Below are positions 1 to 50,681 of a stretch of DNA of 64,000 bases, one piece after another. The notes beneath the pieces were generated by a model. It made no database searches. It was given only the letters and a program-made list of their open reading frames with translations, and was not told where the DNA came from. The position numbers were made by a program, and so were the translations under genes. Position 1 is the first letter of the stretch. Every line of letters starts with the position of its first letter. Origin of the DNA: Ignavibacteriales bacterium (GTDB taxonomy: Bacteria; Bacteroidota; Ignavibacteria; Ignavibacteriales; SURF-24); the NCBI GenBank assembly GCA_003599415.1, contig QZKB01000047.1, positions 1,832-65,831 on the forward strand. The letters run 5' to 3'.

Positions 1-1937
1 ATGTAAGCAAGATTTTAAAATATATTGAAGCTGAACAACCTGTAGAAGATTCATTATTTTCCTCCACCACCAGGATGATGGATTACAGCCAGTTTACTTT
101 ACGCGGTCATTATACTGATCCGTATTCGCCAAAGCTTGGCAAATATTTTAAAACAATGATGTGGCTTGGCAGAACCGAAATCTACCTGCTTGCGCCCAGA
201 GCGTTAGAACCCGCACCTACTAAGGAAGATATTCAACGTCAGACTATTTTGGCATTGTTGGTGCGCGAAGCGTTGCATGCGTCAAATTCTGTTCAGTTGT
301 GGAAAGAAATAGATGATATAACAAAGTTCTTTGTGGGTGAATCCGATAACGTTACACCGGAAAATCTTGATGATCTTGTTGATGCTATCGGAATAACAAA
401 TTCATCAGATTTGCTTGATACTAACATAGTTAAAACATTCCAGGATACACTGAAAACAAAATCCTATGCTTTCCAGAGAATCTTATCCCAGATAATTATG
501 ACCGGATTTAACGATCCGGATAGTATAATTCCGGCTTCGTCGTTCTTATTGCTTGGGCAGAGATTTATTGTTGATTCTTATGTTATAGGTAATGTGGTAT
601 TTGATAAAATTGTTTACCAGAATCAAAGAGTAATGCGTATGCTTCCTTCAACGCTTGATATTTTATTTGCGTTAGGAAATGATGCCTCGGCCCAGCTTCT
701 TACTTCTGAACTTGAGCAATATCATTATGCGCCCAATTTATCTGCTATGAGGTATTTAATTGATAATTACGGAGATGATTTCTGGAATGCAAGCTTATAT
801 AATCTCTGGTTGAATTCAATAAGAAAACTGAACCCACCCGAACAAAGGCAAGACTTACCTATGTTTATGCAAACTGGTGGATGGTGGCAGGAAAAGATGA
901 ATACACAGCTTGCTTCCTGGGCACAGTTAAGACATGATAATCTGCTCTATGCAAAACAATCTTACAGCGGCGGCGCTACATGTTCCTATCCATATAGCTA
1001 CGTTGAACCGATACCACAGTTTTACAATGCAGTAAAACTATTCGCATCAACAGCTAAAAACTTCTTTGAAACTAAATTGAGTCTGGAAGGCACAGTATAT
1101 TATTTTGATGACGTTATGAAAATTTGTGATACACTTGCAACCATAGCAGATAAAGAATTGAACAAACAGCAGCTTAGCGATGTGGAAACTTCATTTTTAA
1201 AAAGAATGCTTTATGAAGGAAATATGTGCGGTATACATTATAACGGATGGTACTCTGAATTGTTTTATACTCCGGAAGAAACAGGACTTCTGAAAGAAGA
1301 TAAGGTAGTTGCAGATGTTCACACAGCGCCGACTGATGAATTTGGTGGTTTAGTGGGCTGGGTAATTCACGCCGGTACTGGTCCTATTAATCTTGGCGTA
1401 TTTATAGCAGAAGCAGCTAACAATTCTCCAATTGCATATGTTGGTCCGGTATTAAGTTATTACGAACACACTACAACGAATTTTAAGAGACTGACAGATG
1501 AAGAATGGAAAGACATTTATAATGTTGCCCCTTCATTAAGACCATCATTTGTAAATTTATATCTGGCAGATAACACCGGTATTTCTAAAGGTGAAGGATT
1601 GAATTTAATGACTAATGTTGAGAAAGATGAAAGTAATAAACAGATTCCGCAGACGATGCTGCTGGTACAGAATTATCCGAATCCGTTCAACTCATCAACA
1701 ATAATTAGATTTAGTGTTCCGGCAAGTTTAACAAACCAGAATGTTACGCTGAACATTTACGATGTTAACGGACAATTGGTTAACCGGTTATTGAATGAAA
1801 ACTTACCTGCAGGTAATTATCTCACTCGTTGGGAAGGTACAGACAACAAGGGAATGACAGTTACAAGCGGAATATATTTTTATAACTTAAACATAGAAGG
1901 AAATCAGATTTCCGGAAAGATGAGTTTAATAAAATAA
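1..1937 (+). CDS. DUF3160-like secreted protein with T9SS C-terminal sorting domain (5' end cut by window edge)
   Basis: Frame 3 is open from nt 3, so the gene starts upstream of the window. The 'DYSQFTLRGHYTD' motif is one I recognise as DUF3160-type. The C-terminus 'NYPNPFNSSTIIRF...VTLNIYDVNG...GIYFYNL' is a T9SS type-A tail. Confidence 0.65.
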   Translation, partial: VSKILKYIEAEQPVEDSLFSSTTRMMDYSQFTLRGHYTDPYSPKLGKYFKTMMWLGRTEIYLLAPRALEPAPTKEDIQRQTILALLVREALHASNSVQLWKEIDDITKFFVGESDNVTPENLDDLVDAIGITNSSDLLDTNIVKTFQDTLKTKSYAFQRILSQIIMTGFNDPDSIIPASSFLLLGQRFIVDSYVIGNVVFDKIVYQNQRVMRMLPSTLDILFALGNDASAQLLTSELEQYHYAPNLSAMRYLIDNYGDDFWNASLYNLWLNSIRKLNPPEQRQDLPMFMQTGGWWQEKMNTQLASWAQLRHDNLLYAKQSYSGGATCSYPYSYVEPIPQFYNAVKLFASTAKNFFETKLSLEGTVYYFDDVMKICDTLATIADKELNKQQLSDVETSFLKRMLYEGNMCGIHYNGWYSELFYTPEETGLLKEDKVVADVHTAPTDEFGGLVGWVIHAGTGPINLGVFIAEAANNSPIAYVGPVLSYYEHTTTNFKRLTDEEWKDIYNVAPSLRPSFVNLYLADNTGISKGEGLNLMTNVEKDESNKQIPQTMLLVQNYPNPFNSSTIIRFSVPASLTNQNVTLNIYDVNGQLVNRLLNENLPAGNYLTRWEGTDNKGMTVTSGIYFYNLNIEGNQISGKMSLIK

Positions 1938-36970: not shown

Positions 36971-37978
36971 CTAACCCTTCACATTAACATGGAAATTAAA
37001 AAGGAATCCAATAAAGAAATAGGATAACAGAAACAGAACAACTCCAAATGCAGGATTGAAAATTGCAATTATTGCCGATTCAGTACAGGCACATGCCCTG
37101 AAATTCATGGAAAGTGAAAAATAAGTTTTACTACCAATCGGATTTTCATAGTAAAGGTAGCCTGTCCATAACTGCATTCCTGTTGCAATTAATGCCAGCT
37201 CCATAAAAATATTATTTAACTGGTATGCCCATACTTCAAAACCGAAATAAAATATCATGAAAATAAATATCGGAAGAAATGAAGCAAACAGAGCCAGTTT
37301 CTTCGAACGCTCAATACCCAACTTAACTATTAATGTATTTTTACCGGCAAGTTTATCTCCTTCATAATCCTTAAAGTAAGTATACAAGGTCATTAACCCG
37401 TTTAATAAAGAAAGGTAGAGGATCATTAAAATGTTTCCGACAGAAATTATTGAAGCGTCTGTTTTTCCTGAGGCCAAGAATCCAAACACAGCACAAATAG
37501 AAATCATAATACCAAAAATTATATTCCCCCAGATTCCGTAACCTTTGGCATATTCATAAATAAGATTAAGTATTATTCCTGCAAAAAGTGGTATTACAGC
37601 AACAGGTTCCAGATAAAACCATGTAACCAGAATTGCACAGGTCATAAGCAGCGTAGATAAAAGTATTGCATACTTAGGATTCAACTCTCCTGTAACCATT
37701 GGTCGTTCAGGGGCATTTATTCTATCTTCGTTTATCCCAAGGTAGTCGTTATAAATCTGATTAATGCCCCACGCAAAAAATAGAATTATCATTATTACAA
37801 CTAACTTTGTAAACGAGGTTGGCTGAAAAATTAGAGAATGTTTTTCGGTTGAGTATGCAAGATACTGGTAATAAGAAATACCGATCAAACCGGCTATTCC
37901 TGTAATGAAGGAATAATATAGCCTCATTGATTTTATGTACGCTCTTATAAATGTTTCAATTTTTTTTATATGAATCAT
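36971..37978 (-). CDS. UbiA-superfamily prenyltransferase (DGGGPS/ChlG-like motif)
   Basis: About 8-9 TM helices. First Asp-rich motif 'NDYLGINEDRINAPERP'. Second motif 'KDYEGDKLAG'. Confidence 0.75.
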   Translation of the reverse strand: MIHIKKIETFIRAYIKSMRLYYSFITGIAGLIGISYYQYLAYSTEKHSLIFQPTSFTKLVVIMIILFFAWGINQIYNDYLGINEDRINAPERPMVTGELNPKYAILLSTLLMTCAILVTWFYLEPVAVIPLFAGIILNLIYEYAKGYGIWGNIIFGIMISICAVFGFLASGKTDASIISVGNILMILYLSLLNGLMTLYTYFKDYEGDKLAGKNTLIVKLGIERSKKLALFASFLPIFIFMIFYFGFEVWAYQLNNIFMELALIATGMQLWTGYLYYENPIGSKTYFSLSMNFRACACTESAIIAIFNPAFGVVLFLLSYFFIGFLFNFHVNVKG

Positions 37979-37990
37979 ATTTATTCTTCT

Positions 37991-39283
37991 TTATAACTTT
38001 ATTACCCGTTTATAAAAATCTGCTTCTTCACCTCTATTCCAGCCGTTAATTACCTGTTGTGATAATTCTTTTGAAAGAGGCAGAACAGTAATATTATTTT
38101 CCTTAACAATTGCTGCTATGCGGGCAGAGCAAATCTCGCAAAGCCAGCTATCGCCGGATTTTCGGAAAGAATCCCTCATTCGAGCATAAATCAAATCAAA
38201 GTCCTCATCCTTAATATTTCCGAAAGAAATATTTAAGAATTCACAAGGCTGGACATCTCCTTTTGCATTAATGTAAAACCGATCTGTACCACCGGCAGTG
38301 CAACCGAACATATCGCTTCTTTCATCTTCAATCTGTGCATATATAAAAGGATAATTCCTGAATTCTTTCCTGTTATTGTACTGGTGTACTTTTTCTTCTA
38401 TATGAATAAGATCCTCTCTTGAAAAGTTGCCTATGTCAGCACCAAGCCATCCACCTGATGGCTTAGGTTTAATTAGCTGAATTAATGTTATCCCTAATTT
38501 TTGTGCAAGCTCAATAATTTTTTGAAAGTTACCATTATAAAAATCTTCTTTAAGAATGCAGGTATTTGCTGTAACTTCCAACCCGGCTTCATGACATAAG
38601 ATTATTCCATTAGATAAATTATCCCAGGCTTTCTCATTTTTCATGAACTGATTTATTCTTTCGGGATATGGAGAGTGAAGAGAGAACATAATACCATATA
38701 CACCGGCATTTTTAAGTTGCAGAAGCTTTTCCCTGCTCATACCGTCCCCGGTTGAATTAATCCAGATTTCACCGACCTTGATTGCATCGCACAATTTTAA
38801 AAGTTTATCAAACACAAGGAATGGTTCACCGCCTTCAATATTAAAAAATGAGACTCCCCTTTTATCAAGTCTTGCTGCAATATCGCAAAGAAGATTTATA
38901 TCCACATCTTTACCTTTATCCATCTTCTGATAACAATGTTCACAATTATAACGACAGGCAGAAGTAACTGATAGAAGAACTGAAATACATGGCATACTTT
39001 CTTCCGAAACCAAAACTTTCTTGCTGGCTTTAAAAAATGCCTTTGACGGAAACGCCGGTACATACAGATTCATTTTAATGTATTTCCCAGATTTGACATA
39101 CTTGTTCATTTTCATTTTAGAAAGGAAGAAAAGTAATCGTTTGAGAAACCGGATAAAATTTCTTGCGGGTATTTTACCTGTAAGCATTTCAAGCAGGAAA
39201 TGGAAAAAGACATATATTTTAATATAGTTATCATATATCATCTTCTCCCGACCAATTAAATATTTTATATTACCCATAACCAA
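37991..39283 (-). CDS. Radical SAM enzyme
   Basis: 'SACRYNCEHCY' CxxxCxxC motif. 'GGEPF'. The C-terminal Cys-containing region ('GCTAGG...QPCEF', 'CEICSARI') suggests an auxiliary cluster. Confidence 0.75.
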   Translation of the reverse strand: MVMGNIKYLIGREKMIYDNYIKIYVFFHFLLEMLTGKIPARNFIRFLKRLLFFLSKMKMNKYVKSGKYIKMNLYVPAFPSKAFFKASKKVLVSEESMPCISVLLSVTSACRYNCEHCYQKMDKGKDVDINLLCDIAARLDKRGVSFFNIEGGEPFLVFDKLLKLCDAIKVGEIWINSTGDGMSREKLLQLKNAGVYGIMFSLHSPYPERINQFMKNEKAWDNLSNGIILCHEAGLEVTANTCILKEDFYNGNFQKIIELAQKLGITLIQLIKPKPSGGWLGADIGNFSREDLIHIEEKVHQYNNRKEFRNYPFIYAQIEDERSDMFGCTAGGTDRFYINAKGDVQPCEFLNISFGNIKDEDFDLIYARMRDSFRKSGDSWLCEICSARIAAIVKENNITVLPLSKELSQQVINGWNRGEEADFYKRVIKL

Positions 39284-39289
39284 ATCCTC

Positions 39290-40324
39290 TTATAGATATT
39301 TATTTTCTTTGTACCAAAGGATAGTTTTTTCTATACTTTCTTCCAGAGAATAATCCGGAGTAAAATCCAGAAGAGCCTTTAGCTTTTCAGAAGAGTACTC
39401 AATATTATCATAAAATATATTTACTCTGCCTCGTGAAATTGGCGGCGCATTTTTACTTCTGGATATTGTGTACATAAGTTCCGTTAAAAATGCAGGCGGA
39501 TAAATAATTGATTTAGGAATCCGATGAGGTATTTTAATGCCTGCTTTTTCGCAAAACAGGTTGAACAAATTAAATTGATTCGGAGCCTCGGGAGCAACAG
39601 CAAGAATTTTATTTACTCCCTGTAATTCTTTTTTATATGACAGATAATAAATTTTTCCAAGATCTCTTGCATATATGGTATGAAATTTATTTTTCTTTGA
39701 ACCCGGCAGAAAATGCAAACCACCTTTTACGAGTTTAATGAAATCGTAAAATCCTGAATGAAATTCTCTTTCTCCATATACCCAGGCAGGTTCAAGTATT
39801 GTTAAATTGAATTGATTCAGCTCAGCAAACTTAATTGCCTGAACATTTGCTTCAGCCTTTGTATCCCTGTAAAAATTTAAAGCCGAAGGAAAGATCTTAT
39901 CCATAAAATATTTGTAATGGGAACTGTATGGATAGTTCTCGTCCTTTACAATTGAAGAGGATTCTTCACCGTAGCATGAAACTGATCCGGTTATGATTAA
40001 ATTATTAATACTGTTTGCATAGGCAGCTTTCAAAACATTTGATGTACCTTCAACATTCACTTTACGGAAATCTTCATACGTACCCCAGTCTCCTACTTTT
40101 GCTGCAGTATGAATAACAAAATCGATTCCCGAATTAAAAACAGAGATCAATTTTTGCAGATCGGTTACATCCCCGTAAACAATATCTGCACCCAACATTT
40201 TCAAAAAACCAGTATCACTTCTTTCTCTCACCATACAAAATGGACTTATTCCTTTTGAATGGAAATATTCGGTAATATGACTTCCTATCAATCCATTTGC
40301 TCCGGTGACTAAAATCCTTCCCAT
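39290..40324 (-). CDS. NAD-dependent epimerase/dehydratase-family (extended SDR) enzyme
   Basis: 'ILVTGANGLIGSH' Rossmann motif. 'YRDTKAEA' YxxxK. Confidence 0.75.
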   Translation of the reverse strand: MGRILVTGANGLIGSHITEYFHSKGISPFCMVRERSDTGFLKMLGADIVYGDVTDLQKLISVFNSGIDFVIHTAAKVGDWGTYEDFRKVNVEGTSNVLKAAYANSINNLIITGSVSCYGEESSSIVKDENYPYSSHYKYFMDKIFPSALNFYRDTKAEANVQAIKFAELNQFNLTILEPAWVYGEREFHSGFYDFIKLVKGGLHFLPGSKKNKFHTIYARDLGKIYYLSYKKELQGVNKILAVAPEAPNQFNLFNLFCEKAGIKIPHRIPKSIIYPPAFLTELMYTISRSKNAPPISRGRVNIFYDNIEYSSEKLKALLDFTPDYSLEESIEKTILWYKENKYL

Positions 40325-41341
40325 CTAACTAATCCTACGAGAGATTAAATATTCAGTTAAGCATTTGATATACTCATAATGATCCTTGAAATCGCGGGCA
40401 GCTATATTGAAATCATTTAAGAGAAGCTGTTTATTCTTAATTTCTAAAATTTTTGATTTTTCTTTTGTAATCTTACCGATACAGAAGAGTTTAATTCCAA
40501 TGTCTTCAGCATCTTTAATCAATATTTTTTCGTCTCTCTGATTAATTGTGAAAAGCAATTCATACTCACCGCATTCGCCAAATAGCAGACATTCTTTGGG
40601 AAGACCAATTTTGTTAATCCAATCAATGCCAGGTTTAAAATAAGGTAGATTGTTAACAACAAAACCGCACTCATTTATTTCTGAGATGATATCCAATGAT
40701 TTATACAGTCCGTCGCTTGTATCAATACATGAAGTAGCATAGCTTGAAACAAGTTCAGCCTCCCTGAAACGTAGCGGAAAAATAATCTTATGTTTTTCGA
40801 AAAGCTCATCACCCTCACCAGAATTAATTTCATATAATGAGGAAGCGGCTTCGAAATTCCCTCTGCCAATCTCCCCGGTTAAAAAAATAAGATCTCCGTC
40901 GTTTGCACCTTTTCTTGTTACAATTTTGTTTGCCTCACCTATAGCAATTCCTGTAAAATTCCAATTTTCACAATAACCAAAATCACCTCCGATAAAGGCA
41001 ATTCCGCATTTTTCCAGTACATATGCAATTCCTTTTGAAAGAGAATCGATAAAATCAATACTCCAGGAGTGTTCGCAGTTAAGACTATTACAAAAGAATA
41101 AAGGTTTTCCTCCACATGCAAAAATATCACTCAGTGTACAAGTGGCAAGGTTCATACCCAGAATATAAGGATCATTTAACCTGAAGTGATCTTCATTAGA
41201 ATATGTATCGACAGTAATCAGATAATCTTTGTTGCCCAACTTAATAATTTCCGAATCTGACTGAAAGAATTGATTTCTATGTCTATCAGACTTCCTGAAA
41301 TTTCCAAGTATGGTTTTTATTATTTCATATTCACTAATCAT
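40325..41341 (-). CDS. AIR-synthase-related / ThiL-like ATP-utilising protein (PurM superfamily)
   Basis: 'DSEIIKLG...LITVDTYSNEDHF', 'NLATCTLSDIFACGGKP', 'FIGGDFG', 'GDLIFLTGEIGRG' follow the ThiL/PurM pattern. Confidence 0.6.
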   Translation of the reverse strand: MISEYEIIKTILGNFRKSDRHRNQFFQSDSEIIKLGNKDYLITVDTYSNEDHFRLNDPYILGMNLATCTLSDIFACGGKPLFFCNSLNCEHSWSIDFIDSLSKGIAYVLEKCGIAFIGGDFGYCENWNFTGIAIGEANKIVTRKGANDGDLIFLTGEIGRGNFEAASSLYEINSGEGDELFEKHKIIFPLRFREAELVSSYATSCIDTSDGLYKSLDIISEINECGFVVNNLPYFKPGIDWINKIGLPKECLLFGECGEYELLFTINQRDEKILIKDAEDIGIKLFCIGKITKEKSKILEIKNKQLLLNDFNIAARDFKDHYEYIKCLTEYLISRRIS

Positions 41342-41395
41342 TTATCAACTCTTTAATAATCTCATTTGTAAAATGCGCATTTAATTCGATTCTGT

Positions 41396-41423
41396 TGTCA
41401 TAATAATGTCATAAAAATGTAAA
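41396..41423 (-). promoter_or_regulatory. Pho-box-like array of 11-bp-phased hexamers upstream of the biosynthetic operon
   Basis: Plus strand TGTCAT-aataa-TGTCAT-aaaaa-TGTAAA. In gene sense this reads TTTACA-ttttt-ATGACA-ttatt-ATGACA, 55-82 nt upstream of the start at 41341. Confidence 0.5.
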
Positions 41424-41507
41424 AACCTATTTGATCTATTCCCTTAGGATAAAAAAGTAAAAATTTCTGTTTGATATTTGGGAAATAAGAATTTATATTT
41501 CGTTCAA

Positions 41508-41585
41508 ATGAATAGAGATTTAAACATATTAAATAAAAGCTGGGCTTGGTGGTGGAACCTCCGCGTTTCGCTATCTGGCATGTGA
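41508..41585 (+). CDS. Trp-rich leader peptide (MNRDLNILNKSWAWWWNLRVSLSGM)
   Basis: 25-codon ORF with four TGG codons within five positions (41541-41555). It sits directly upstream of two terminator hairpins and trpB2. No obvious SD sequence. Confidence 0.75.
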   Translation: MNRDLNILNKSWAWWWNLRVSLSGM

Positions 41586-41604
41586 TAGATAAAAATTAAA
41601 TAAT

Positions 41605-41640
41605 AGCCGTGGATAGTGAAACAACTGTCCACGGCTTTTT
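41605..41640 (+). terminator. Attenuator hairpin 1
   Basis: AGCCGTGGA-(14 nt)-TCCACGGCT followed by TTTTT. Confidence 0.7.
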
Positions 41641-41646
41641 CATTTT

Positions 41647-41678
41647 AAAGCCGTGAGAATGCAAATCACGGCTTTTTT
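41647..41678 (+). terminator. Attenuator hairpin 2 (intrinsic terminator)
   Basis: AAAGCCGTGA-gaatgcaaa-TCACGGCTTTTTT. Its 5' arm is complementary to the 3' arm of hairpin 1. Confidence 0.75.
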
Positions 41679-41754
41679 GTTTGCTGGATATTACACTTAA
41701 TAAATAACAAATGATTAGAGAATCAAAAAATTAAAAAACAATTTAGGAGTTACC

Positions 41755-43119
41755 ATGCGAGACAACAAATTTCACATTCACGTAAATGATATGCCGAACA
41801 AATGGTATAATATTCTTCCGGATCTTCCTGTACCATTAGCACCACCAATTCATCCCGGGACAAAAAAACCGATTAATCCTGAAGACCTTGCAGCAATTTT
41901 TCCAATGGAATTAATCCAACAGGAAATGAGTCCTGATAGGTTTATTGAAATTCCGGATGAAGTACTGGATGTTCTTTCCTTAAGCAGGCCAACACCAGTC
42001 ATCAGAGCTTACAGGTTAGAGAAAGCGCTCGATACTCCTGCCAAAATTTATTTCAAGTATGAAGGTGCAAATTCATCCGGAAGTCACAAATTAAACACGT
42101 CAATTGCACAGGCTTACTATAATAAAAAAGCCGGCATTAAAAGGATTGCAACTGAGACAGGTGCTGGTCAATGGGGCAGTGCGTTGGCAATGGCTTGTAA
42201 TCATTTTAATATGGAATGCCAGGTATTTATGGTAAAAGTAAGTTTTCAGCAGAAACCTTACAGGAAATCATTGATGCAGTTATTTGGCGCTGAAGTAATT
42301 CCAAGTCCGTCCAATCTTACAAACTCCGGAAGGAATGTTTTGGCACAATATCCGGATTCTCCCGGTTCACTCGGCATTGCAATTAGTGAAGCAGTTGAAG
42401 TTGCTGCACAGCGTGATGACACAAACTATTCACTTGGGAGTGTGTTGAATCATGTCTTACTGCACCAGACAATTATTGGTGAAGAAGCAAGATTGCAGAT
42501 GGAGATGGCCGGAGATTACCCGGATATAGTTATTGCTTGTGTTGGTGGCGGAAGTAATTTTGGTGGAATCGCATTCCCATTCCTAAGGGACAAACTTACC
42601 GGAGATAAAAAAGAACTTGAAGTTATTGCAGTGGAACCGGCTTCCTGTCCTACATTGACCCGAGGTAAATTCACATATGATTTTGGAGACGAAGCAGGAT
42701 TTACACCTTTACTTAAAATGTACACGCTCGGGCATAATTTCATTCCGGCAAAAATTCATTCAGGCGGATTAAGGTACCATGGAATGTCACCAATTGTATC
42801 TCACTTAAAGAGTCTTGATTTAATTAAGGCTGAAGCTTATTATCAGAAGGAAGTATTTGAAGCGGCAGTTCTATTTGCCCGTGAAGAAGGAATTGTTCCT
42901 GCACCTGAAAGTTCACATGCGATTAAATCTGCTATTGAACAGGCTAATAAATGCAAAGAAAGCGGAGAATCAAAGACTATCTTATTCAACCTTTCAGGAC
43001 ATGGATTTTTAGACCTTGCTGCATATGATGCATATCTTAGTGATCACCTTGAAGATCATGAAATGACTGAAGAAGAAATTGCAGAAAATGTAAAAGATCT
43101 GCCTGAAGTATTAGTCTAA
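41755..43119 (+). CDS. trpB: TrpB2-type tryptophan synthase beta-like PLP enzyme
   Basis: 454 aa (long TrpB2 form). '[14 protein letters not shown]' PLP-lysine motif, 'VGGGSNFGG', 'GGLRYHGM'. AGGAG RBS. Confidence 0.8.
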
Positions 43120-43143
43120 AACAATTCACTATTAATTGTTCAA

Positions 43144-43175
43144 TCCCCTCTCATCATAGAGAGGGGAATATTTTT
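43144..43175 (+). terminator. Intrinsic terminator after trpB2
   Basis: TCCCCTCTC-atcata-GAGAGGGGA followed by ATATTTTT. Confidence 0.75.
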
Positions 43176-43381
43176 CCAGGAAGTTTAATGCCCGCCTTCT
43201 ACCTTGCTGTTCCTTCTATATAAATTTTAAACACTATAGTAATTCCGTAAAATAATTTTACGATTATTATTTCCTTTTATATCAAACGTTTATAAGTCTG
43301 TTGTAAAATAATTTTACAATCGCCAATTCAACATTGAAAGCTTAGCCGGACTTTATTCAGCTTAAAACTAATTTAACTTAC

Positions 43382-43396
43382 TGGCATAATGATTGT
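43382..43396 (+). promoter_or_regulatory. Possible sigma-54 promoter (-24/-12)
   Basis: TGGCAT-aatga-TTGT has the exact TGGCAC-N5-TTGC spacing, 46 nt upstream of the ATG at 43442. The -12 element is GT instead of GC. Confidence 0.3.
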
Positions 43397-43441
43397 TTAA
43401 TAAGCAGCAGTTGAAAATGAAAAACTTTCAGGGAGAATAAA

Positions 43442-44437
43442 ATGCAAAAGAGAATTTTATTAGTAGATGATGAATCAGCTTTAAGAAGATCATTGTCTCT
43501 TGGACTAAACCAGAATGGTTATGATGTAGAACCATGTGAGAATGGATTAACCGCTCTAGATAAACTTGATCTTTACAGCAAGAGTCATATGAACCTTGAT
43601 GTTGTTGTGCTTGACATTCAACTTCCGGATATAAACGGTAAAAAGCTTGGCAGAATTATAAGATCAAAATATCCTGATGCAACAATGCTTTATATAACCG
43701 GCTATGTGGATAAACTTGATCTTCTTGAAATTGAAGACTTAAAGGTGGATGGCTTACTTGAAAAACCTTTTACCGCAGATGTACTCAGTAAACAACTTGA
43801 CCAGATTTTAAATAAAAAACCATTGACTGAAGAAACAAAGGAAAAAGAAAAGGCTGAACCCGTTACGACATCAGCTTATATTTTAATTAAGATTAAACAA
43901 AACGCTGATTTCTTTTCCCTTTATAAAAAACTATACTTTATGGAAAATGTTCTTTACTGCGATGCCACACGCGGAGACATAGATATTTTTATGCTTATTC
44001 AATCAGATTCATCTGAAGCATGCAGAGACTTATTTGAAAATGGAATTAAGAACTTAGATGAAATTGAAGAAGCTACTTTCCTGCCGGTAGATGTTCCTGT
44101 CCTGAATGATAACATCAAAGACATAATAAGCAGTGTAGGCATTACAATGTTTGATGATTTGCCTGAAATGTCAAAAGTAAGAGATAGCAGAAAATCCGTT
44201 TGTTCTTATGTTCTTGTTGATGTTGACAGGGAAAGACTTCAGGAGATTTATCCTGTTCTCCGTCTTACTGAAAATGTACTTTACTGCGATTATATTTCCG
44301 GCAAGTATAATTTAGTTCTTATGGTTCACGGTCCGCAGTTCAGTGAGATTGATAAGATCATTACAAATAAAATTGTTAATCTTGGCGGTGTTCTTAAAGT
44401 AAAGGAATACCCGATAATAAATATTTTTGAAATGTAA
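43442..44437 (+). CDS. Response-regulator receiver fused to two AsnC/Lrp-type ligand-binding (RAM-like) domains
   Basis: Receiver ('ILLVDDE', 'VVVLDIQLPD', 'GLLEKPF'). Two repeats follow, each with 'ENVLYCD...G..(D/N)(I/L)..(M/L).(I/V)'. No DNA-binding domain seen. Confidence 0.6.
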   Translation: MQKRILLVDDESALRRSLSLGLNQNGYDVEPCENGLTALDKLDLYSKSHMNLDVVVLDIQLPDINGKKLGRIIRSKYPDATMLYITGYVDKLDLLEIEDLKVDGLLEKPFTADVLSKQLDQILNKKPLTEETKEKEKAEPVTTSAYILIKIKQNADFFSLYKKLYFMENVLYCDATRGDIDIFMLIQSDSSEACRDLFENGIKNLDEIEEATFLPVDVPVLNDNIKDIISSVGITMFDDLPEMSKVRDSRKSVCSYVLVDVDRERLQEIYPVLRLTENVLYCDYISGKYNLVLMVHGPQFSEIDKIITNKIVNLGGVLKVKEYPIINIFEM

Positions 44438-44636: not shown

Positions 44637-45155
44637 ATGACAGACATTTCTATCCGCGAAGACAAAAAAGAAATTCTGAATTTCAAAATTGACCTGATTA
44701 ACAAAAGGCACCAGGAAGGTTCGCTTATTACCTTGCTTCAGTCTGCACAGGATTCATACGGTTATGTACCGGAGAAAGTAATTCATTATATAAGCGAACT
44801 TGTTGGAATTCCGTCATCGGAAATTTATGGTGTGCTAACATTCTATTCGCAATTCAGGTTAAAGCCGATGGGAAAAAATATAATAAGGATTTGCGAAGGA
44901 ACAGCCTGCCACGTTAACGGCGCAAAAACGGTTCTATCTGTTCTGCAGGATGAACTTGGGATTTCCGTTGATGAAACTACTGATGATGGTTTATTTACAC
45001 TTCAGTCTGTTGCCTGCCTTGGCTGCTGCTCCCTTGCACCCGTTATGATGATTAACCAGGAAACTCACGGTAACCTTACGACAGAAAAAATTAAAAAAGT
45101 AATTAAGAGTTACAAATCCAACCAACACGCAGGAGTTACAAATGAAAAAAATTAA
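44637..45155 (+). CDS. NuoE/HydC-like [2Fe-2S] thioredoxin-fold subunit
   Basis: Cys pattern 'CEGTACHVNG...CLGCCSLAP'. Confidence 0.8.
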   Translation: MTDISIREDKKEILNFKIDLINKRHQEGSLITLLQSAQDSYGYVPEKVIHYISELVGIPSSEIYGVLTFYSQFRLKPMGKNIIRICEGTACHVNGAKTVLSVLQDELGISVDETTDDGLFTLQSVACLGCCSLAPVMMINQETHGNLTTEKIKKVIKSYKSNQHAGVTNEKN

Positions 45156-46905
45156 AGTTGGACTTGGTACCTGTGGTGTTTCTGCCGGCGGAGAATTAGT
45201 TTATAATAAACTCAAGCAGTCAATCAGTGAATTAAATCTTGATGTTGAATTAAGCGAAACCGGTTGTATGGGAATGTGTTATGAAGAAGCTCTTGTGGAA
45301 ATTGAAGACGACAATGATAAATATCTTTACTCAAAAGTTTCTGTTGATAAAGTTGGCAGAATAATTAACGAACACATAATAAACAATCAACCCATCAACG
45401 ATTGGATTATTAAAAGCAGCCAGGTTTCCAAAGAAGAATCTTTCTTAAAACACCAGACAAGAATTGTTTTAAGAAACTGCGGGGAAATTAATCCTTCTTC
45501 AATTGATGATTACATTGCAAAGAACGGCTACAATGCAATTCAAAAAGTTTTAAATGAATATTCCCAGCAGGATGTAATTGAGATTGTAACCAAATCCGGT
45601 TTACGCGGAAGAGGCGGCGCCGGCTTTGCTACAGGAATGAAATGGAAATTTGCAAATCAATCCGTGGCAGATAAAAAATATATTATCTGCAATGCAGATG
45701 AAGGCGACCCCGGCGCATTTATGGACAGAAGCGTGCTTGAAGGAGATCCTCATTCTGTATTGGAAGGAATGATGATTGCCGGCTACACTATTGGCGCCGA
45801 TGAAGGAATAATTTACGCAAGAGCAGAATATCCTCTTGCAATTAAAAGATTAAAAAACGCTTTGCAGCAATGCAGGCAAAAAGGAATTCTTGGTAAAAAT
45901 ATTTTCGGCACTTCTTTCAGTTTCGATATTAGAATTAAAGAAGGAGCCGGTGCTTTTGTATGCGGTGAAGAAACTGCACTTATGGCATCTGTAGAAGGGA
46001 GAAGAGGAATCCCCCGGATTCGTCCTCCCTTTCCTGCAGTTAGCGGTTTGTGGGGCAAACCAACCAACATTAACAATGTAGAAACTAATGCTAATGTTCC
46101 ATGGATAATCTTAAACGGCTGGCAAGCTTTTGCTTCAATGGGCACAGAGAAAAGTAAGGGCTCAAAAGTTTTTGCACTTGCAGGAAAAATTAAAAGAAGC
46201 GGTTTAATTGAAGTGCCGATGGGTATGACGATAAATCAAATTGTGTTTGATGTCGGCGGTGGAATTAAAAACGACAGAAAATTTAAAGCCGTTCAGATTG
46301 GCGGTCCTTCAGGCGGCTGCATACCTGCTTCAATGGGAGATTTAAGAATTGATTATGATGAGATCGTTAAAACAGGAGCCATCGTTGGCTCTGGTGGTTT
46401 AATTGTTCTGGATGATACAACCTGTATGGTTGATCTTGCACGATACTTCTTAAATTTCACCCAGCTTGAGTCCTGCGGCAAATGTACATTCTGCAGAATT
46501 GGAACTAAGCGAATGCTTGAAATTCTTGAAAGAATAACTGAAGGGCATGGAAAAGAATCTGATATTGATTTACTTGAGAATCTTGCAATGCAAATTAAAA
46601 GTGCAAGCTTGTGCGGATTAGGGCAATCGGCGCCAAATCCTGTTTTAACAACAATAAAATATTTCCGAGAAGAATACGAAGAACACATTCTTAATAAACG
46701 ATGCCCGACTCATTCCTGCTCATCATTAATTACTTACAACATAATTGAAGAGAAGTGTAAAGGCTGCGGCGTATGCATAAAAGCGTGCCCAACCGGTGCA
46801 ATTACAGGCAAGAAGAAAGAATTGCATTACATAAACTATGAACTGTGTATTAAGTGCGGCAAATGTTATGAATCCTGCCGGCTTGACGCAGTTGAAAAAA
46901 TATAA
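45142..46905 (+). CDS. NuoF/HydB-like FMN- and NAD(H)-binding subunit with extra Fe-S domains
   Basis: 'GRGGAGFATGMKWKF'. 'ESCGKCTFCR' N3-cluster motif. N-terminal thioredoxin-like [2Fe-2S] domain. C-terminal 2x[4Fe-4S] ('CKGCGVCIKACP', 'CIKCGKCYESC'). Confidence 0.8.
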   Translation: MKKIKVGLGTCGVSAGGELVYNKLKQSISELNLDVELSETGCMGMCYEEALVEIEDDNDKYLYSKVSVDKVGRIINEHIINNQPINDWIIKSSQVSKEESFLKHQTRIVLRNCGEINPSSIDDYIAKNGYNAIQKVLNEYSQQDVIEIVTKSGLRGRGGAGFATGMKWKFANQSVADKKYIICNADEGDPGAFMDRSVLEGDPHSVLEGMMIAGYTIGADEGIIYARAEYPLAIKRLKNALQQCRQKGILGKNIFGTSFSFDIRIKEGAGAFVCGEETALMASVEGRRGIPRIRPPFPAVSGLWGKPTNINNVETNANVPWIILNGWQAFASMGTEKSKGSKVFALAGKIKRSGLIEVPMGMTINQIVFDVGGGIKNDRKFKAVQIGGPSGGCIPASMGDLRIDYDEIVKTGAIVGSGGLIVLDDTTCMVDLARYFLNFTQLESCGKCTFCRIGTKRMLEILERITEGHGKESDIDLLENLAMQIKSASLCGLGQSAPNPVLTTIKYFREEYEEHILNKRCPTHSCSSLITYNIIEEKCKGCGVCIKACPTGAITGKKKELHYINYELCIKCGKCYESCRLDAVEKI

Positions 46906-46925
46906 TAATCATCCTGGAAAAGTTT

Positions 46926-49900
46926 ATGGAAAATATAAAAGTAACAATTAACGGCAAAGAGTTCGAAACAACCAACGACAAAACAATTCTTGAAGTTGTA
47001 AACGAAAACAAGGTTGATAACATTCCGACTTTATGCGAAGATAAAAGACTTGAGCATTACACTTCCTGCTTTTTATGCGTTGTAGAAGTTGAAGGACTGA
47101 ACAGATTAATTCCTTCCTGCTCAACTAAAGTTATCAACGGAATGAAAATAAAAACAAGAAGCGAAGCAGTGCTCAAATCAAGAAAGACTGCGCTTGAATT
47201 GCTTATGTCCAACCATTACGCGGATTGTATTGGTCCCTGCACAAACAACTGCCCTGCCGGAGTTGATGCTCAGACTTACATTGCTTTAATCTCTATGGGT
47301 AAATACAAGGAAGCGTTAAAGCTTGTTAAACAAAATAATCCTCTTCCCCTTTCTATTGGAAGAGTTTGCGTAAGAGATTGCGAAAAAGACTGCCGCAGAA
47401 ATTATGTTGATGAACCTGTTTCTGTTAATGCACTTAAAAGATTTGTTGCCGATCTTGATTCAATAAACAAATGGATTCCTGAGTTAAAGCCAAAAAGAAA
47501 TAAAAAGGTAGCAGTGATTGGAAGCGGTCCCGCCGGTTTAACCTGCGCCTATTTTTTAACTCTTGATGGTAATGATGTTACTATTTTTGAAAAGCTGCCG
47601 GAACTTGGCGGAATGTTAAGGTACGGAATTCCGGAATACAGATTACCGAAGAATATACTTGATACAGAAATCAACTGGATACTTGATCTTGGCGTCAAGG
47701 TAAAAACAAATGTTGAACTTGGAAAAGATTTTTGCCTCGATGATTTGAAAGCACAAGGATTTGAATCCGTGTTTATAGGCGTTGGAGCACACAAGGCAAC
47801 TAAACTTGGTTTGGATGGTGAAGAAAAAACCGTTGGAGTTTTCCGGGGAATTGATTTCTTAAGAGAAATAACTTTTAACCAAAATAAAACTCTTAACGGA
47901 ATTGTAATTGTTGTTGGCGGAGGAAACACTGCAATTGATGCTGCCAGAACAGCTTTAAGATGCGGTGCAGATCAGGTTAAAATTGTTTACAGGAGAAGCA
48001 TTAACGAAATGCCCGCTGCAAAAGAGGAAATTGAAGCTGCGCAACATGAAGGCGTTGAAATTTTATTCCTGACAAATCCTAAATCTCTTGTAGTTGAAAA
48101 TGAAAAGCTTAAAGGAATTGAATGCTTAAAAATGCAGCTTGAGGAAACAAAGCCAGGTGAACGCCCCCGCCCTGTTCCGGTTGCAGGCTCAGAATTTATA
48201 ATCAACTGCGACCATATCATAAGCGCAATAGGACAGGCAGTTGATACGTCATTTGTTCAGAAAGATAAGAATATTGGTTTGGAAAAATGGGGAACAATAT
48301 CTGTTAACAAAGATACGCTCGAAACATCATTCCCTGGAATATTTGCCGGTGGAGATGATGTAACCGGCCCATTAACCGCAATCAGTTCAATTGCCCAGGG
48401 CAAGAAAGCCGCATACGCAATAATGAATTACCTTGAAACCGGCGAAGCTAAAAAATCAGATTTTAAATTCTATAGCCTAAAACATAAGCTTCACAAATTA
48501 ACTGACCGGGAATTTGAGCAGTACAAAAAAATTCCGCGTGAGAAGATTGCTGAAATTCCTTTAAGCGAAAGAAATAATTTTTGTGAAGTTGAACTTGGAA
48601 TAAACGAGGACCAATCTTTACAAGAAACAGAAAGATGCCTTGAGTGCGGCTGCTCTGAATATGCAGACTGTACATTAAGAAAATACTGCGATGAATACCA
48701 GGTTGATGTTTCTGAGTTTATCGGCGAAACAAGAAAATATATGGTGGATGGCAGACATCCGTTTATTCTTCTTGATTCCAATAAATGTATAAACTGCGGT
48801 AAGTGCGTTAGAACTTGTTCAGAAATATTAAAAGTATCTGCACTTGGATTTGTTTACCGCGGATTCAAATCAATTGTAAAGCCGGCAATGGAAAAAGCTT
48901 TAAGCGAAACTAATTGCATTGCCTGCGGTAACTGTATTGATGTTTGTCCTACCGGCGCAATTGCAGAGAAGTATCCATTTAAATTGCTTGGAACCTTGCC
49001 GAAAGAAAATATTGAAACAGTCTGCAATTTCTGTTCGATTGGATGCAAAGTTAACTTTAAGAAAATTACAAACGATATTTTCTATGTTTCAAATTCAACA
49101 GAAGAAATAAAAGAAACTCACAACAAAGGATTCCTCTGTTCAAAAGGAAGATTCGGCCATCGTTATCTTCTTCAAAAAAACAGAATACTCACTCCGCAGA
49201 TTAAGCAGAATGGCTTGTACAGTAATGTTGACGAAAATGCGGCACTTAAATACACTGCTTATAAACTGAAAGAAATTATCCGTGAATACGGAAAAGAATC
49301 TGTTGCTGTTTTTGCATCTCCAAAACTCTCCAACGAAGAACTTTATCTGCTTCAGAAGTTTGCAAGAATTGGAATAGGCAATAACAATATTCACAGCTTT
49401 TCCAATATGCTTTACGGACTTGAGCTGAACAGCCTTGATGATTCAGTTGGATTTACTTCTTCAACCATTGATTCCGGAAAACTTGAAAAGGCAGATGTAA
49501 TTGTTGTGATAAACTCTAACCTGTCTGAAGAAAACCTTGTGATGGAATTAAAAATAAAAGCCGCGCAGAAAAGAGGTGCTAAAGTTATTCTGATTAATTC
49601 TTCTGAAATAAAATTAACCCGGCAGGCTGACCTGTGGATTGACAGTAAAAAAGGAACGAACACTTCCCTTCTTAATGCAATGATGAAACAGCTTCTTGAT
49701 GATGGTAAGATTGATAACAGTTTTATTTCATCCAGGACAGAAAAGTTTGAGGAATTCAGGCAAAGCATTGATGAATTAAAAATCCAAAACGCACTGGATA
49801 TTTCAGGGGTAAGCAAAGACAAATTTGCAGCATGCCTTCAGCTTCTATCAAACCCGGATTTAAACATTATATTTATTTATAACATTGATTCAACTGCGGA

Positions 49901-50681
49901 CAAATCATTAAATGATCTTCAGGCAGTTAATAATTTTCTATTGATGACTGGCAGAGTTGGTAAAGAAAATAACGGAATTATCCTTCTTAGAGAATTCAAT
50001 AATTCTGCCGGCTTAATGGATATGGGCGTTATACCTGATTATCTTCCCGGCTTTGTTAAAGCTTCCGATAAAGATGAGGTAGAGAGAATTGGAAGATTCT
50101 GGAATCATAATTTAAATGAAAACTTCGTTCCGGTTAACCTGCTAAGTAAACTTAAACGAGGTGAAATAAAAGCTGCATTAATCTTTGGTGAAGACCCGCT
50201 CTCACATAGTAGCAACAGCAGGTACTTAAACAATCTTGAACTGCTTGTTGTGAGCGATTCATTCCATACTGCTACAACTGCTGAAGCAGATGTGATTTTA
50301 CCGGCTTCTACTCATATTGAACAGACAGGGACTTATACAAACTGCGATAACATAACTCAAAGATCAAACAAAGTAGTTGACAGCTTAAACATGTTTGCAA
50401 ACTGGGAAATAATTAAAATGCTCTCTTCCCAATTCTCAGATCAGTTTAACCATAAATCAATTGAAGATGTTTTTGCTGAGATTAAATCTGTAAACAGGTT
50501 TTACAATTACTCAGAAGCTGGAAAGTTCTGGATGGATAATTTCTTTACAAACGGATTTACAAAACAAAAGTTGAATTTCCAAAATTACGATATAAATTTA
50601 TCTACGTTTGACCCGGTTAAACCAGCTATACATTACCAGGAAAATTACTATTTTAAGAACATAAAAATGCAACTTATGTAG
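46926..50681 (+). CDS. Fusion protein: NuoG-type [2Fe-2S] + GltD/NfnB-like NAD(P)H flavoenzyme + 4Fe-4S ferredoxins + molybdopterin-oxidoreductase-like domain
   Basis: N-terminus 'ITINGKEF...IPTLC...CFLCVVEV'. GltD-type 'CIGPCTNNCPAG...GRVCVRDCEKDC' plus 'VAVIGSGPAGLTCA' and 'VVGGGNTAIDAA'. 'CINCGKCVRTC', 'CIACGNCIDVCP'. MopB 'CNFCSIGC' and 'GFLCSKGRFG'. Confidence 0.7.
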   Translation: MENIKVTINGKEFETTNDKTILEVVNENKVDNIPTLCEDKRLEHYTSCFLCVVEVEGLNRLIPSCSTKVINGMKIKTRSEAVLKSRKTALELLMSNHYADCIGPCTNNCPAGVDAQTYIALISMGKYKEALKLVKQNNPLPLSIGRVCVRDCEKDCRRNYVDEPVSVNALKRFVADLDSINKWIPELKPKRNKKVAVIGSGPAGLTCAYFLTLDGNDVTIFEKLPELGGMLRYGIPEYRLPKNILDTEINWILDLGVKVKTNVELGKDFCLDDLKAQGFESVFIGVGAHKATKLGLDGEEKTVGVFRGIDFLREITFNQNKTLNGIVIVVGGGNTAIDAARTALRCGADQVKIVYRRSINEMPAAKEEIEAAQHEGVEILFLTNPKSLVVENEKLKGIECLKMQLEETKPGERPRPVPVAGSEFIINCDHIISAIGQAVDTSFVQKDKNIGLEKWGTISVNKDTLETSFPGIFAGGDDVTGPLTAISSIAQGKKAAYAIMNYLETGEAKKSDFKFYSLKHKLHKLTDREFEQYKKIPREKIAEIPLSERNNFCEVELGINEDQSLQETERCLECGCSEYADCTLRKYCDEYQVDVSEFIGETRKYMVDGRHPFILLDSNKCINCGKCVRTCSEILKVSALGFVYRGFKSIVKPAMEKALSETNCIACGNCIDVCPTGAIAEKYPFKLLGTLPKENIETVCNFCSIGCKVNFKKITNDIFYVSNSTEEIKETHNKGFLCSKGRFGHRYLLQKNRILTPQIKQNGLYSNVDENAALKYTAYKLKEIIREYGKESVAVFASPKLSNEELYLLQKFARIGIGNNNIHSFSNMLYGLELNSLDDSVGFTSSTIDSGKLEKADVIVVINSNLSEENLVMELKIKAAQKRGAKVILINSSEIKLTRQADLWIDSKKGTNTSLLNAMMKQLLDDGKIDNSFISSRTEKFEEFRQSIDELKIQNALDISGVSKDKFAACLQLLSNPDLNIIFIYNIDSTADKSLNDLQAVNNFLLMTGRVGKENNGIILLREFNNSAGLMDMGVIPDYLPGFVKASDKDEVERIGRFWNHNLNENFVPVNLLSKLKRGEIKAALIFGEDPLSHSSNSRYLNNLELLVVSDSFHTATTAEADVILPASTHIEQTGTYTNCDNITQRSNKVVDSLNMFANWEIIKMLSSQFSDQFNHKSIEDVFAEIKSVNRFYNYSEAGKFWMDNFFTNGFTKQKLNFQNYDINLSTFDPVKPAIHYQENYYFKNIKMQLM

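Follow-up and report, generated by a model that had tools for sequence, protein, structure and literature searches.

A putative ribosome-mediated tryptophan attenuator with two terminators upstream of a stand-alone trpB2 gene in Ignavibacteriota

Introduction

What links the expression of a stand-alone trpB2 gene to the supply of tryptophan (Trp) in the Ignavibacteriota, a little-studied phylum? The question is raised by a stretch of 64,000 nucleotides from an Ignavibacteriales bacterium (contig QZKB01000047.1, positions 1,832 to 65,831 of the forward strand; hereafter the window), in which a Trp-rich open reading frame (ORF) and two hairpins followed by T-runs, together spanning positions 41508-41678, stand ahead of trpB2. 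A first-pass annotation, made from the sequence alone, had proposed that these features constitute a leader-peptide attenuator with two terminators. The follow-up presented here comes to the same view: I put at roughly 85% the probability that the element is a ribosome-mediated leader-peptide attenuator that senses charged tRNA-Trp and controls the stand-alone trpB2. On comparison with related loci, the element at 41508-41678 is real and conserved. It is very probably a classical attenuator in a new lineage, whose core mechanism is textbook and opens no long-standing question; the unusual part is a second checkpoint, which in the window would be a second terminator.

A Trp-rich leader ORF upstream of trpB2

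The leader ORF comprises 25 codons, from an ATG at 41508 to a TGA at 41583-41585, and encodes the run W-A-W-W-W, with TGG codons at 41541-43 and 41547-55; four TGG codons in five positions had been read there before, correctly. TGG had also been described as rare in this genome, which is true in the sense that Trp is ordinarily rare: it accounts for 1.08% of the 20,142 codons of the long ORFs of the window. The chance of finding four Trp residues within five positions of a 25-codon ORF is P ~1e-6, and TGGTGGTGG occurs twice in the 64 kb where 0.14 occurrences are expected. The other copy (64-72, minus strand) was considered as a leader and rejected, not being read as Trp codons. A short ORF with clustered cognate codons is therefore present upstream of the gene presumed to be regulated.

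This gene was identified as trpB2 by its match to NF009057 (739 bits, where the cut-off is 366), in agreement with the first-pass annotation. It has its own Shine-Dalgarno sequence (AGGAG, 41745-49) and its own terminator, found at 43144-43167 by a terminator scan, and is therefore considered monocistronic. The product of stand-alone trpB2 genes is thought to condense indole with serine, and the putative target of the attenuator lies in the pathway of the amino acid that would be sensed. On the other side of the element, the neighbouring gene is thiL-like (40325-41341) and lies on the minus strand. It reads away from the attenuator, so that the hairpins end no other gene, and the possibility that they serve as the terminator of this upstream gene was rejected on that ground.

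A promoter is predicted immediately ahead of the leader ORF. The leader ATG sits 8 nucleotides past the -10-like TATATT (41494-99), and relatives have a TTGACA or TTGCAT -35 followed by a TAnnTTTG-like element located 4-8 nucleotides ahead of the leader start codon. Because there is no room for a Shine-Dalgarno sequence between the -10-like element and the ATG, the leader mRNA is likely to be leaderless or nearly so: transcription would start at or just ahead of the ATG, and the leader peptide is probably translated from such an mRNA. In two metagenome loci (L144 and L195), the leader ORF begins ~10 nucleotides past the 3' end of an apparent tRNA gene (…GGTTCGATCCCACCCGCGCTCA), and the leader may there be co-transcribed with the tRNA instead of being transcribed from its own promoter.

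A predicted chain of mutually exclusive helices

The region between the Trp codons and the end of the second hairpin can be divided into six segments, whose predicted helices exclude one another along a chain: 1:2, 2:3, 3:4 (the first terminator, T1), 4:5 and 5:6 (the second terminator, T2) (Table 1). The fold of 41500-41700 (201 nucleotides) is more stable than those of 200 dinucleotide-preserving shuffles, with a z of -5.3, and 40800-43600 contains 6 terminator-like sites where the shuffles have a mean of 1.8.

Helix 1:2 (-17.3 kcal/mol) joins the Trp codons GGUGGUGGAAC (41548-58, extending to 41544) to the last part of the leader ORF, GUUUCGCUAUC (41565-75, extending to 41579), and is found in both the minimum free energy (MFE) and the centroid folds; it had been missed in the earlier account of the leader foldings, which was incomplete in this respect. 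The antiterminator, helix 2:3 (-18.2 kcal/mol), pairs 41565-79 with 41611-22 (12 bp) and 41606-08 (3 bp) and takes up almost the entire 5' arm of T1. The pairing of 5+3 bp between the leader and the first hairpin that had been noted before is real and is a fragment of this 12+3 bp helix. T1 pairs 41605-41617 with 41624-41636 (13 bp, loop of 6, -24.0 kcal/mol) and is followed by UUUUCAUUUU; the terminator scan picked it up as well. T2 pairs 41647-56 with 41666-75 (10 bp, loop of 9, -14.5 kcal/mol), its core being formed by AGCCGTGA (41649-56) and TCACGGCT (41666-73). Both hairpins and their T-runs are present as annotated, with stems longer than had been described. The same applies to the sharing of arms between them: the complementarity of 41630-36 and 41649-55 is part of helix 4:5, which pairs 41630-38 with 41647-55 (9 bp including UUU:AAA, loop of 8, -14.2 kcal/mol). 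The mirror image of this helix appears as a minus-strand "terminator" at 41656-41629, a candidate that was discarded, no nearby minus-strand gene heading there.

All the helices of a classical attenuator (1:2, 2:3 and 3:4) are present, and 4:5 and 5:6 lengthen the series. As predicted by folding, 1:2, 2:3 and 3:4 are mutually exclusive, with the regulatory codons in or near segment 1, and two candidate intrinsic terminators, T1 and T2, each a GC-rich stem with a U-run, lie between leader and gene. The position of the stop codon (41583-85) is such that a ribosome terminating there sits on segment 2.

Table 1. Features of the trpB2 leader region, in coordinates of the window
Feature	Coordinates	Strand	Basis
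Predicted promoter: -35 TTGATA (41471-76), 17-nucleotide spacer, -10 TATATT (41494-99)	41471-41499	+	consensus scan, 10/12
Leader ORF, 25 codons, peptide MNRDLNILNKSWAWWWNLRVSLSGM	41508-41585	+	read directly; TGG runs in relatives
Segment 1: Trp codons and 3 nucleotides, 5' strand of helix 1:2	41544-41558	+	MFE and centroid folds
Segment 2: end of leader ORF (GUUUCGCUAUCUGGC), partner of segment 1 or segment 3	41565-41579	+	helix energies, pair counts
Segment 3: 5' arm of T1 (41605-17) and loop; 41606-08 and 41611-22 pair with segment 2	41605-41623	+	
Segment 4: 3' arm of T1 (41624-36) and U-run; 41630-38 alternatively pairs with segment 5	41624-41641	+	
Segment 5: AAAGCCGUGA, 5' arm of T2, also complementary to segment 4	41647-41656	+	helix 4:5
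Segment 6: 3' arm of T2 (41666-75), last three pairs overlapping the six-U run (41673-78)	41666-41679	+	
trpB2, TrpB-like pyridoxal phosphate enzyme, 454 amino acids	41755-43119	+	NF009057 739 bits, TIGR01415 675 bits

Conservation and covariation of the leader

If the element is an attenuator, relatives should retain its Trp codons and its alternative pairings. Homologues were collected from two sources. Among the twenty best-matching trpB2 loci, taken from genomes with their upstream sequence, 18 have the same arrangement, and all of these come from metagenome-assembled genomes (MAGs) labelled as or resembling Ignavibacteriota. Metagenomes were scanned with a pattern that described T1 only (CCGTGGATRG N4-20 TYCACGGYTTT); Trp codons were not part of it and were therefore not selected for in the homologues that it retrieved. 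Of the 120 stretches found, 44 have a (TGG)2-4 run at most 130 nucleotides upstream; 42 of the 44 are family members and two (L096 and L141) are chance matches. After removal of duplicates, the family numbers 54 distinct members, namely the window and 53 others (18 from genomes and 35 from metagenomes). An in-frame run of two to four TGG codons is kept in all 54, and trpB2 lies downstream of every member that has sufficient downstream sequence.

Pairing was quantified in an alignment of 48 sequences (A1). The cells of helix 1:2 are paired in 92% of cases and those of T1 in 95%, as compared with 40-58% for slid controls of the two helices counted jointly; for helix 2:3 the value is 85%, against 30-52%. 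In neither count (1:2 with T1, and 2:3) did any of 500 shuffles reach the observed covariation score. Pair 32-82 of helix 2:3 is UA in 21 sequences, CG in 16 and UG in 9, while in helix 1:2 pair 17-26 is GC in 22 sequences and AU in 14, and pair 18-25 covaries as well. The first-pass annotation had suggested comparing orthologous leaders for conserved Trp codons and compensatory changes, and the comparison bears it out on both counts, with compensatory changes in 1:2, 2:3 and 3:4. G-U pairs are frequent in T1 (79-102 in 42 of the 48 sequences, 81-100 in 33), which indicates that the helix forms in the plus-strand RNA. An inverted repeat acting as a DNA operator was rejected, the stems having both strand-specific G-U pairs and covarying inner pairs.

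Throughout the family, the stop codon is found within segment 2 or immediately to either side of it, which is what the model calls for; a terminating ribosome would always cover this segment. A covariance model built from A1 (R1) detects one copy of the element in the 64-kb window (61.5 bits, E = 9e-12) and, by construction, one copy per locus in the 18 relatives used to build it; in trpB2 loci from other phyla it has no significant match.

These data also bear on the possibility that the transcripts ended at T1 or T2 act chiefly in trans, as a small RNA or as the mRNA of a small peptide, in the manner of Sinorhizobium rnTrpL/peTrpL, the control of trpB2 being secondary. Trans functions of attenuator-derived small RNAs and of leader peptides are documented (PMC6614838, PMC7298713), and the leader RNA bears a weak, sub-threshold likeness to the small RNA models BTnc231 (19.2 bits) and TEG147 (24.4 bits). 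These Rfam matches are, however, far under the gathering scores, and trpB2 always comes directly after the element, of which the window and the locus of each relative have a single copy. As for a trans-acting peptide, its residues beyond the Trp run are variable, and the conserved C-terminal ones are accounted for by the RNA pairing of segment 2. A mainly trans-acting function is thus improbable.

Predicted behaviour of the leader as a function of Trp supply

The attenuator would work as follows. When Trp is plentiful, the ribosome would reach the stop codon and cover segment 2, leaving segment 3 free to pair with segment 4; T1 would form, and most transcripts would stop near 41640. In those that escape, segment 4 would be locked in T1, and segment 5, being free, could form T2, which would offer a second chance of termination near 41678. 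When Trp is scarce, the ribosome would stall on the UGG codons (41541-55) and cover segment 1, so that segment 2 would capture segment 3 upon its synthesis and T1 would be blocked. Segment 4, thereby freed, would pair with segment 5 ahead of the transcription of segment 6, which would block T2 in turn. With both terminators blocked, RNA polymerase would continue into trpB2. If the leader is not translated at all, helix 1:2 would form, which corresponds to the classical default-off state.

Transcripts of increasing length were folded with the nucleotides presumed to be covered by the ribosome masked (41532-62 for the stalled ribosome). For a ribosome placed at the Trp codons, the MFE structure up to 41629 is 2:3; at length 41657, by which segment 5 but not segment 6 has emerged, it combines 2:3 with 4:5. 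With the ribosome on the stop codon, 2:3 is never seen, and T1, then T2, are formed, as the first-pass annotation had anticipated for this state. With no ribosome, 1:2 is formed first, and the full-length MFE structure comprises 1:2, T1 and T2. The earlier proposal that a stalled ribosome would disrupt both terminators is in keeping with the structures obtained at intermediate lengths; it does not describe the equilibrium, at which T1 and T2 win.

A possible relay to the second terminator

Is T2 controlled by the same stalling event as T1? The members that have a second terminator (23 sequences, alignment A2) show T2 paired at 89%. Its inner stem covaries, and its outer stem, GCCG/CGGC, is invariant and the same as that of T1. 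Helix 4:5 is paired at 85% in A2, as compared with 13-50% when slid. Alignment-based covariation is uninformative for this helix, its columns being invariant; MAFFT also misplaced three sequences (L004, L009 and L014). Complementarity between segments 4 and 5 exists in 52 of the 54 sequences, with duplex energies of -7.5 to -18.5 kcal/mol and, in constrained folds, a mean of -13.4 kcal/mol, against -6.2 kcal/mol for shuffles. In two of the misplaced sequences (L004 and L009), segments 4, 5 and 6 have changed together, to CACGGU, ACCGUG and CACGGU, and the three helices are all intact. In the two members that lack segment 5 (L011 and L184), T2 and the UUCAC spacer are missing too. Finally, segment 4 is the only evident partner of the 5' arm of T2. 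A relay to the second terminator is therefore plausible, supported as it is by conservation and logic, and on these comparisons control of T2 through helix 4:5 is the slightly favoured reading.

Several observations weigh against the mechanism set out above. The leader ORF has no Shine-Dalgarno sequence, and its translation depends on a presumed leaderless start. In some relatives with an early stop codon (L018, L097, L106, L143 and L169), helix 1:2 is no better than in shuffles. Equilibrium favours T1 and T2 even when segment 1 is masked (lengths 41641 and 41680); T1 beats 2:3 at equilibrium (-24.0 versus -18.2 kcal/mol), and the switch would therefore have to be kinetic. With regard to the relay, helix 4:5 is without covariation in A2, because its columns are almost invariant; in many two-terminator relatives it has just ~8 bp (ACGGCUUU/AAAGCCGU) and is weaker than T2; and the shared arm could partly reflect an origin of T2 as a duplicate of T1.

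The points that concern 4:5 are those that would be expected if only T1 were regulated and T2 were uncoupled from the leader peptide, either as a leaky, unconditional back-up terminator or as a relic duplicate of T1. In that case T2 would lower expression in both states. The arms of T1 and T2 are identical, as a duplication would make them, and the single-terminator members L011 and L184 show that T1 alone can suffice. On the other hand, an unregulated terminator that combined six U with a GC-rich stem of 10 bp would prevent induction, and a plain terminator has no need of an invariant outer stem beside an inner stem that diverges freely. Furthermore, at length 41657 with the ribosome stalled, 4:5 belongs to the MFE structure, and a sister variant of the element, described below, keeps a segment 5 that is an even better Watson-Crick partner of segment 4, though its T2 is weak or absent. 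An uncoupled T2 is thus the less likely of the two explanations, and a doubtful one.

A sister variant with a different putative second checkpoint

In the sister variant (~25 sequences), segment 5 is GCCGUGAAC(C), a 9-bp, all-Watson-Crick partner of segment 4 that replaces two G-U pairs made by segment 3 with segment 4. This segment 5 also pairs with GGAGGUUCAC-AUG, the conserved ribosome site of trpB2, the energies being -9 to -13.6 kcal/mol as compared with -4 to -6 kcal/mol for shuffles, and in some members T2 is weak or absent. This suggests that, in the sister variant, translational sequestration is the second checkpoint, replacing the second terminator or adding to it. The same arrangement was looked for in the window and rejected: segment 5 pairs there with the trpB2 site at -3.2 kcal/mol, against -4.4 kcal/mol for shuffles. 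At the DNA level, segment 5 of the sister variant reads GCCGTGAAC(C), with complementarity both to T1's 3' arm and to the conserved GGAGGTTCAC-ATG site. It was observed between T1 and the trpB2 start in loci L003, L005, L006, L008, L086, L094, L102, L107-L109, L112, L126, L127, L134, L144, L178, L188, L191 and L195.

Taken together, the two branches can be described as a modular six-segment relay of the Ignavibacteriota, in which one stall on a leaderless Trp-rich leader would set two successive checkpoints, the second being a terminator in the branch of the window and sequestration of the trpB2 ribosome site in the other. The odds on this broader proposal appear evenly balanced. If it is true, one sensor would serve interchangeable output modules, and tightness of the off state would be multiplied while induction is kept. 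The relay itself, if true, would be a compact natural design against leakiness and would hold some interest for synthetic biology as well as for work on RNA-based regulation.

Comparison with known regulatory systems

The window, 20 relatives and outgroups from the Fibrobacteres-Chlorobi-Bacteroidetes (FCB) group contain no match to an Rfam family at its gathering score. In particular, Trp_leader (RF00513, gathering score 41 bits) has no match with E up to 10 between 40500 and 43000, nor any at gathering score window-wide. The element nevertheless resembles Escherichia coli trpL (RF00513) in its organization: a short ORF with tandem Trp codons is followed by helices 1:2, 2:3 and 3:4, of which 3:4 is an intrinsic terminator, and a stalled ribosome frees segment 2, the choice between structures being kinetic, as it would have to be in the trpB2 element. 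It differs from trpL in having no sequence or model similarity to it, in its host (Ignavibacteriota), in its target (a stand-alone trpB2, not trpEDCBA), in the second terminator that shares arms with the first, and in a leader that is probably on a leaderless mRNA.

Exclusive helices arranged in a chain are a textbook feature of the his attenuator. The his operon attenuator of Salmonella and E. coli, which is said to have been analysed by Johnston et al. in 1980 and by Kolter and Yanofsky in 1982, reportedly contains helices A:B, B:C, C:D, D:E and E:F. As in the trpB2 element, six segments relay the position of the ribosome, through exclusive helices, to a distal terminator. In his, however, only E:F terminates, whereas the trpB2 element has terminators at both 3:4 and 5:6, that is, two putative serial checkpoints. 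A literature search found no description of two terminators inside one chain of exclusive helices.

The sister variant has a different parallel. In Bacillus subtilis, the Shine-Dalgarno sequence of trpE is sequestered in read-through transcripts. The trp leader of this organism is subject to transcription attenuation with TRAP (trp RNA-binding attenuation protein) as its mediator (PMC3064811). As would be the case in the sister variant, one sensor governs both a terminator and, in the transcripts that escape it, a hairpin that sequesters a ribosome site. The B. subtilis sensor is a protein bound to (G/U)AG repeats, not a translating ribosome as proposed for the trpB2 element. The window itself has the two-terminator version, the pairing with its ribosome site being at background.

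Could a sensor of another kind, a protein (TRAP-like), a tRNA (T-box-like) or a small molecule (riboswitch), drive the switch in the window, the Trp-rich ORF being incidental? Such systems do precede trpB2 elsewhere: in MAGs of Chloroflexi, a T-box (RF00230, 94-105 bits) stands directly upstream of trpB2 (L055, 2628-2889; L061, 2682-2951; L065, 2656-2916). Up to an E of 10, the same model has no match in the window, from which the core sequence of the T-box, GGUGGNACCGCG, is also absent. Binding of TRAP requires 9-11 (G/U)AG triplets 2-3 nucleotides apart; the leader has four, irregularly spaced (41586, 41604, 41614 and 41655). Among Rfam families, the trpB motif (RF04312) has the top bit score in the window, but its E-value is not the lowest (25.6 bits, E = 1.1, against a gathering score of 59). 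It is an unrelated motif from Firmicutes and Fusobacteria, proposed as a candidate riboswitch and found mostly upstream of an ABC transporter (Narunsky et al. 2024, PMC11109978), and has in common with the trpB2 element a hairpin followed by a terminator and a position that is sometimes upstream of trpB; unlike the trpB2 element, its description mentions no Trp codons. All 54 members keep the in-frame TGG run, together with a start codon and a positioned stop codon. A switch of this kind is therefore highly improbable, and ribosome-mediated attenuation is retained as the explanation. The core sequence of the T-box was also seen in several further loci of Chloroflexi and Dehalococcoidia.

A further precedent is the Bacteroid-trp leader. 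For Bacteroidetes, a Trp leader preceding trpB and trpE was predicted by Weinberg et al. (2010; PMC2864571, supplement), who called it "a loosely conserved hairpin" and drew no consensus. Like the trpB2 element, it is a Trp-codon leader predicted by comparative genomics only, in a related phylum of the FCB group; the Ignavibacteriota element differs in being tightly conserved in sequence and in having its six-segment architecture resolved. The corresponding model, RF01692, has no match in the window, none at gathering score in the 20 related loci and none with an E of up to 1 in the Bacteroidales, Weeksellaceae and Caldithrix loci of trpB2.

Unrelated leader ORFs with a WWW run, each followed by a single strong terminator, were observed upstream of trpB2 in five loci (L032, L039, L054, L057 and L037) from Bacteroidales (MKRSILHTWWWHRYNKYAVNQAVM), Weeksellaceae, Caldithrix and a spirochaete MAG. 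No Rfam family, Bacteroid-trp included, reaches its gathering score in these leaders. The first-pass annotation had suggested that attenuation of this kind might be new both for the lineage and for a TrpB2 gene. For the lineage this holds, the literature search having found no report of such leader peptides in Ignavibacteriota; as a general claim it was overstated, given the leaders predicted in 2010 for trpB and trpE of Bacteroidetes, and with regard to TrpB2 it is further weakened by the WWW leaders of the other groups.

What the trpB2 element adds is a probable instance of ribosome-mediated Trp attenuation, with a fully resolved architecture, in a phylum for which no report was found and in a form that no Rfam model covers. 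In the FCB group leader peptides, and in Chloroflexi T-boxes, place trpB2 under sensors of tRNA-Trp charging, which fits a role of TrpB2 in the supply of Trp.

Host and neighbouring genes

The nearest TrpB2 loci are found in MAGs of Melioribacter, Melioribacteraceae and Ignavibacteria, with amino-acid identities of up to 88%, and the host genome is that of a Melioribacter-like member of the Ignavibacteriota. The G+C content of the 64-kb window is 35%.

Upstream of the attenuator, a minus-strand block (36971-41341) encodes a UbiA-type prenyltransferase, a radical-SAM/SPASM protein, a protein of the NAD-dependent epimerase/dehydratase family and the thiL-like protein, an AIR-synthase-family member that scores below the thiL cut-off (146 versus 184 bits). 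The block looks like an uncharacterised cluster for lipid or cofactor modification. Downstream of trpB2, on the plus strand (44637-50681), NuoE-like and NuoF-like genes are followed by an ORF of 1251 amino acids; in its arrangement this group recalls a soluble hydrogenase or dehydrogenase module that depends on NADH and is possibly electron-bifurcating, and not complex I.

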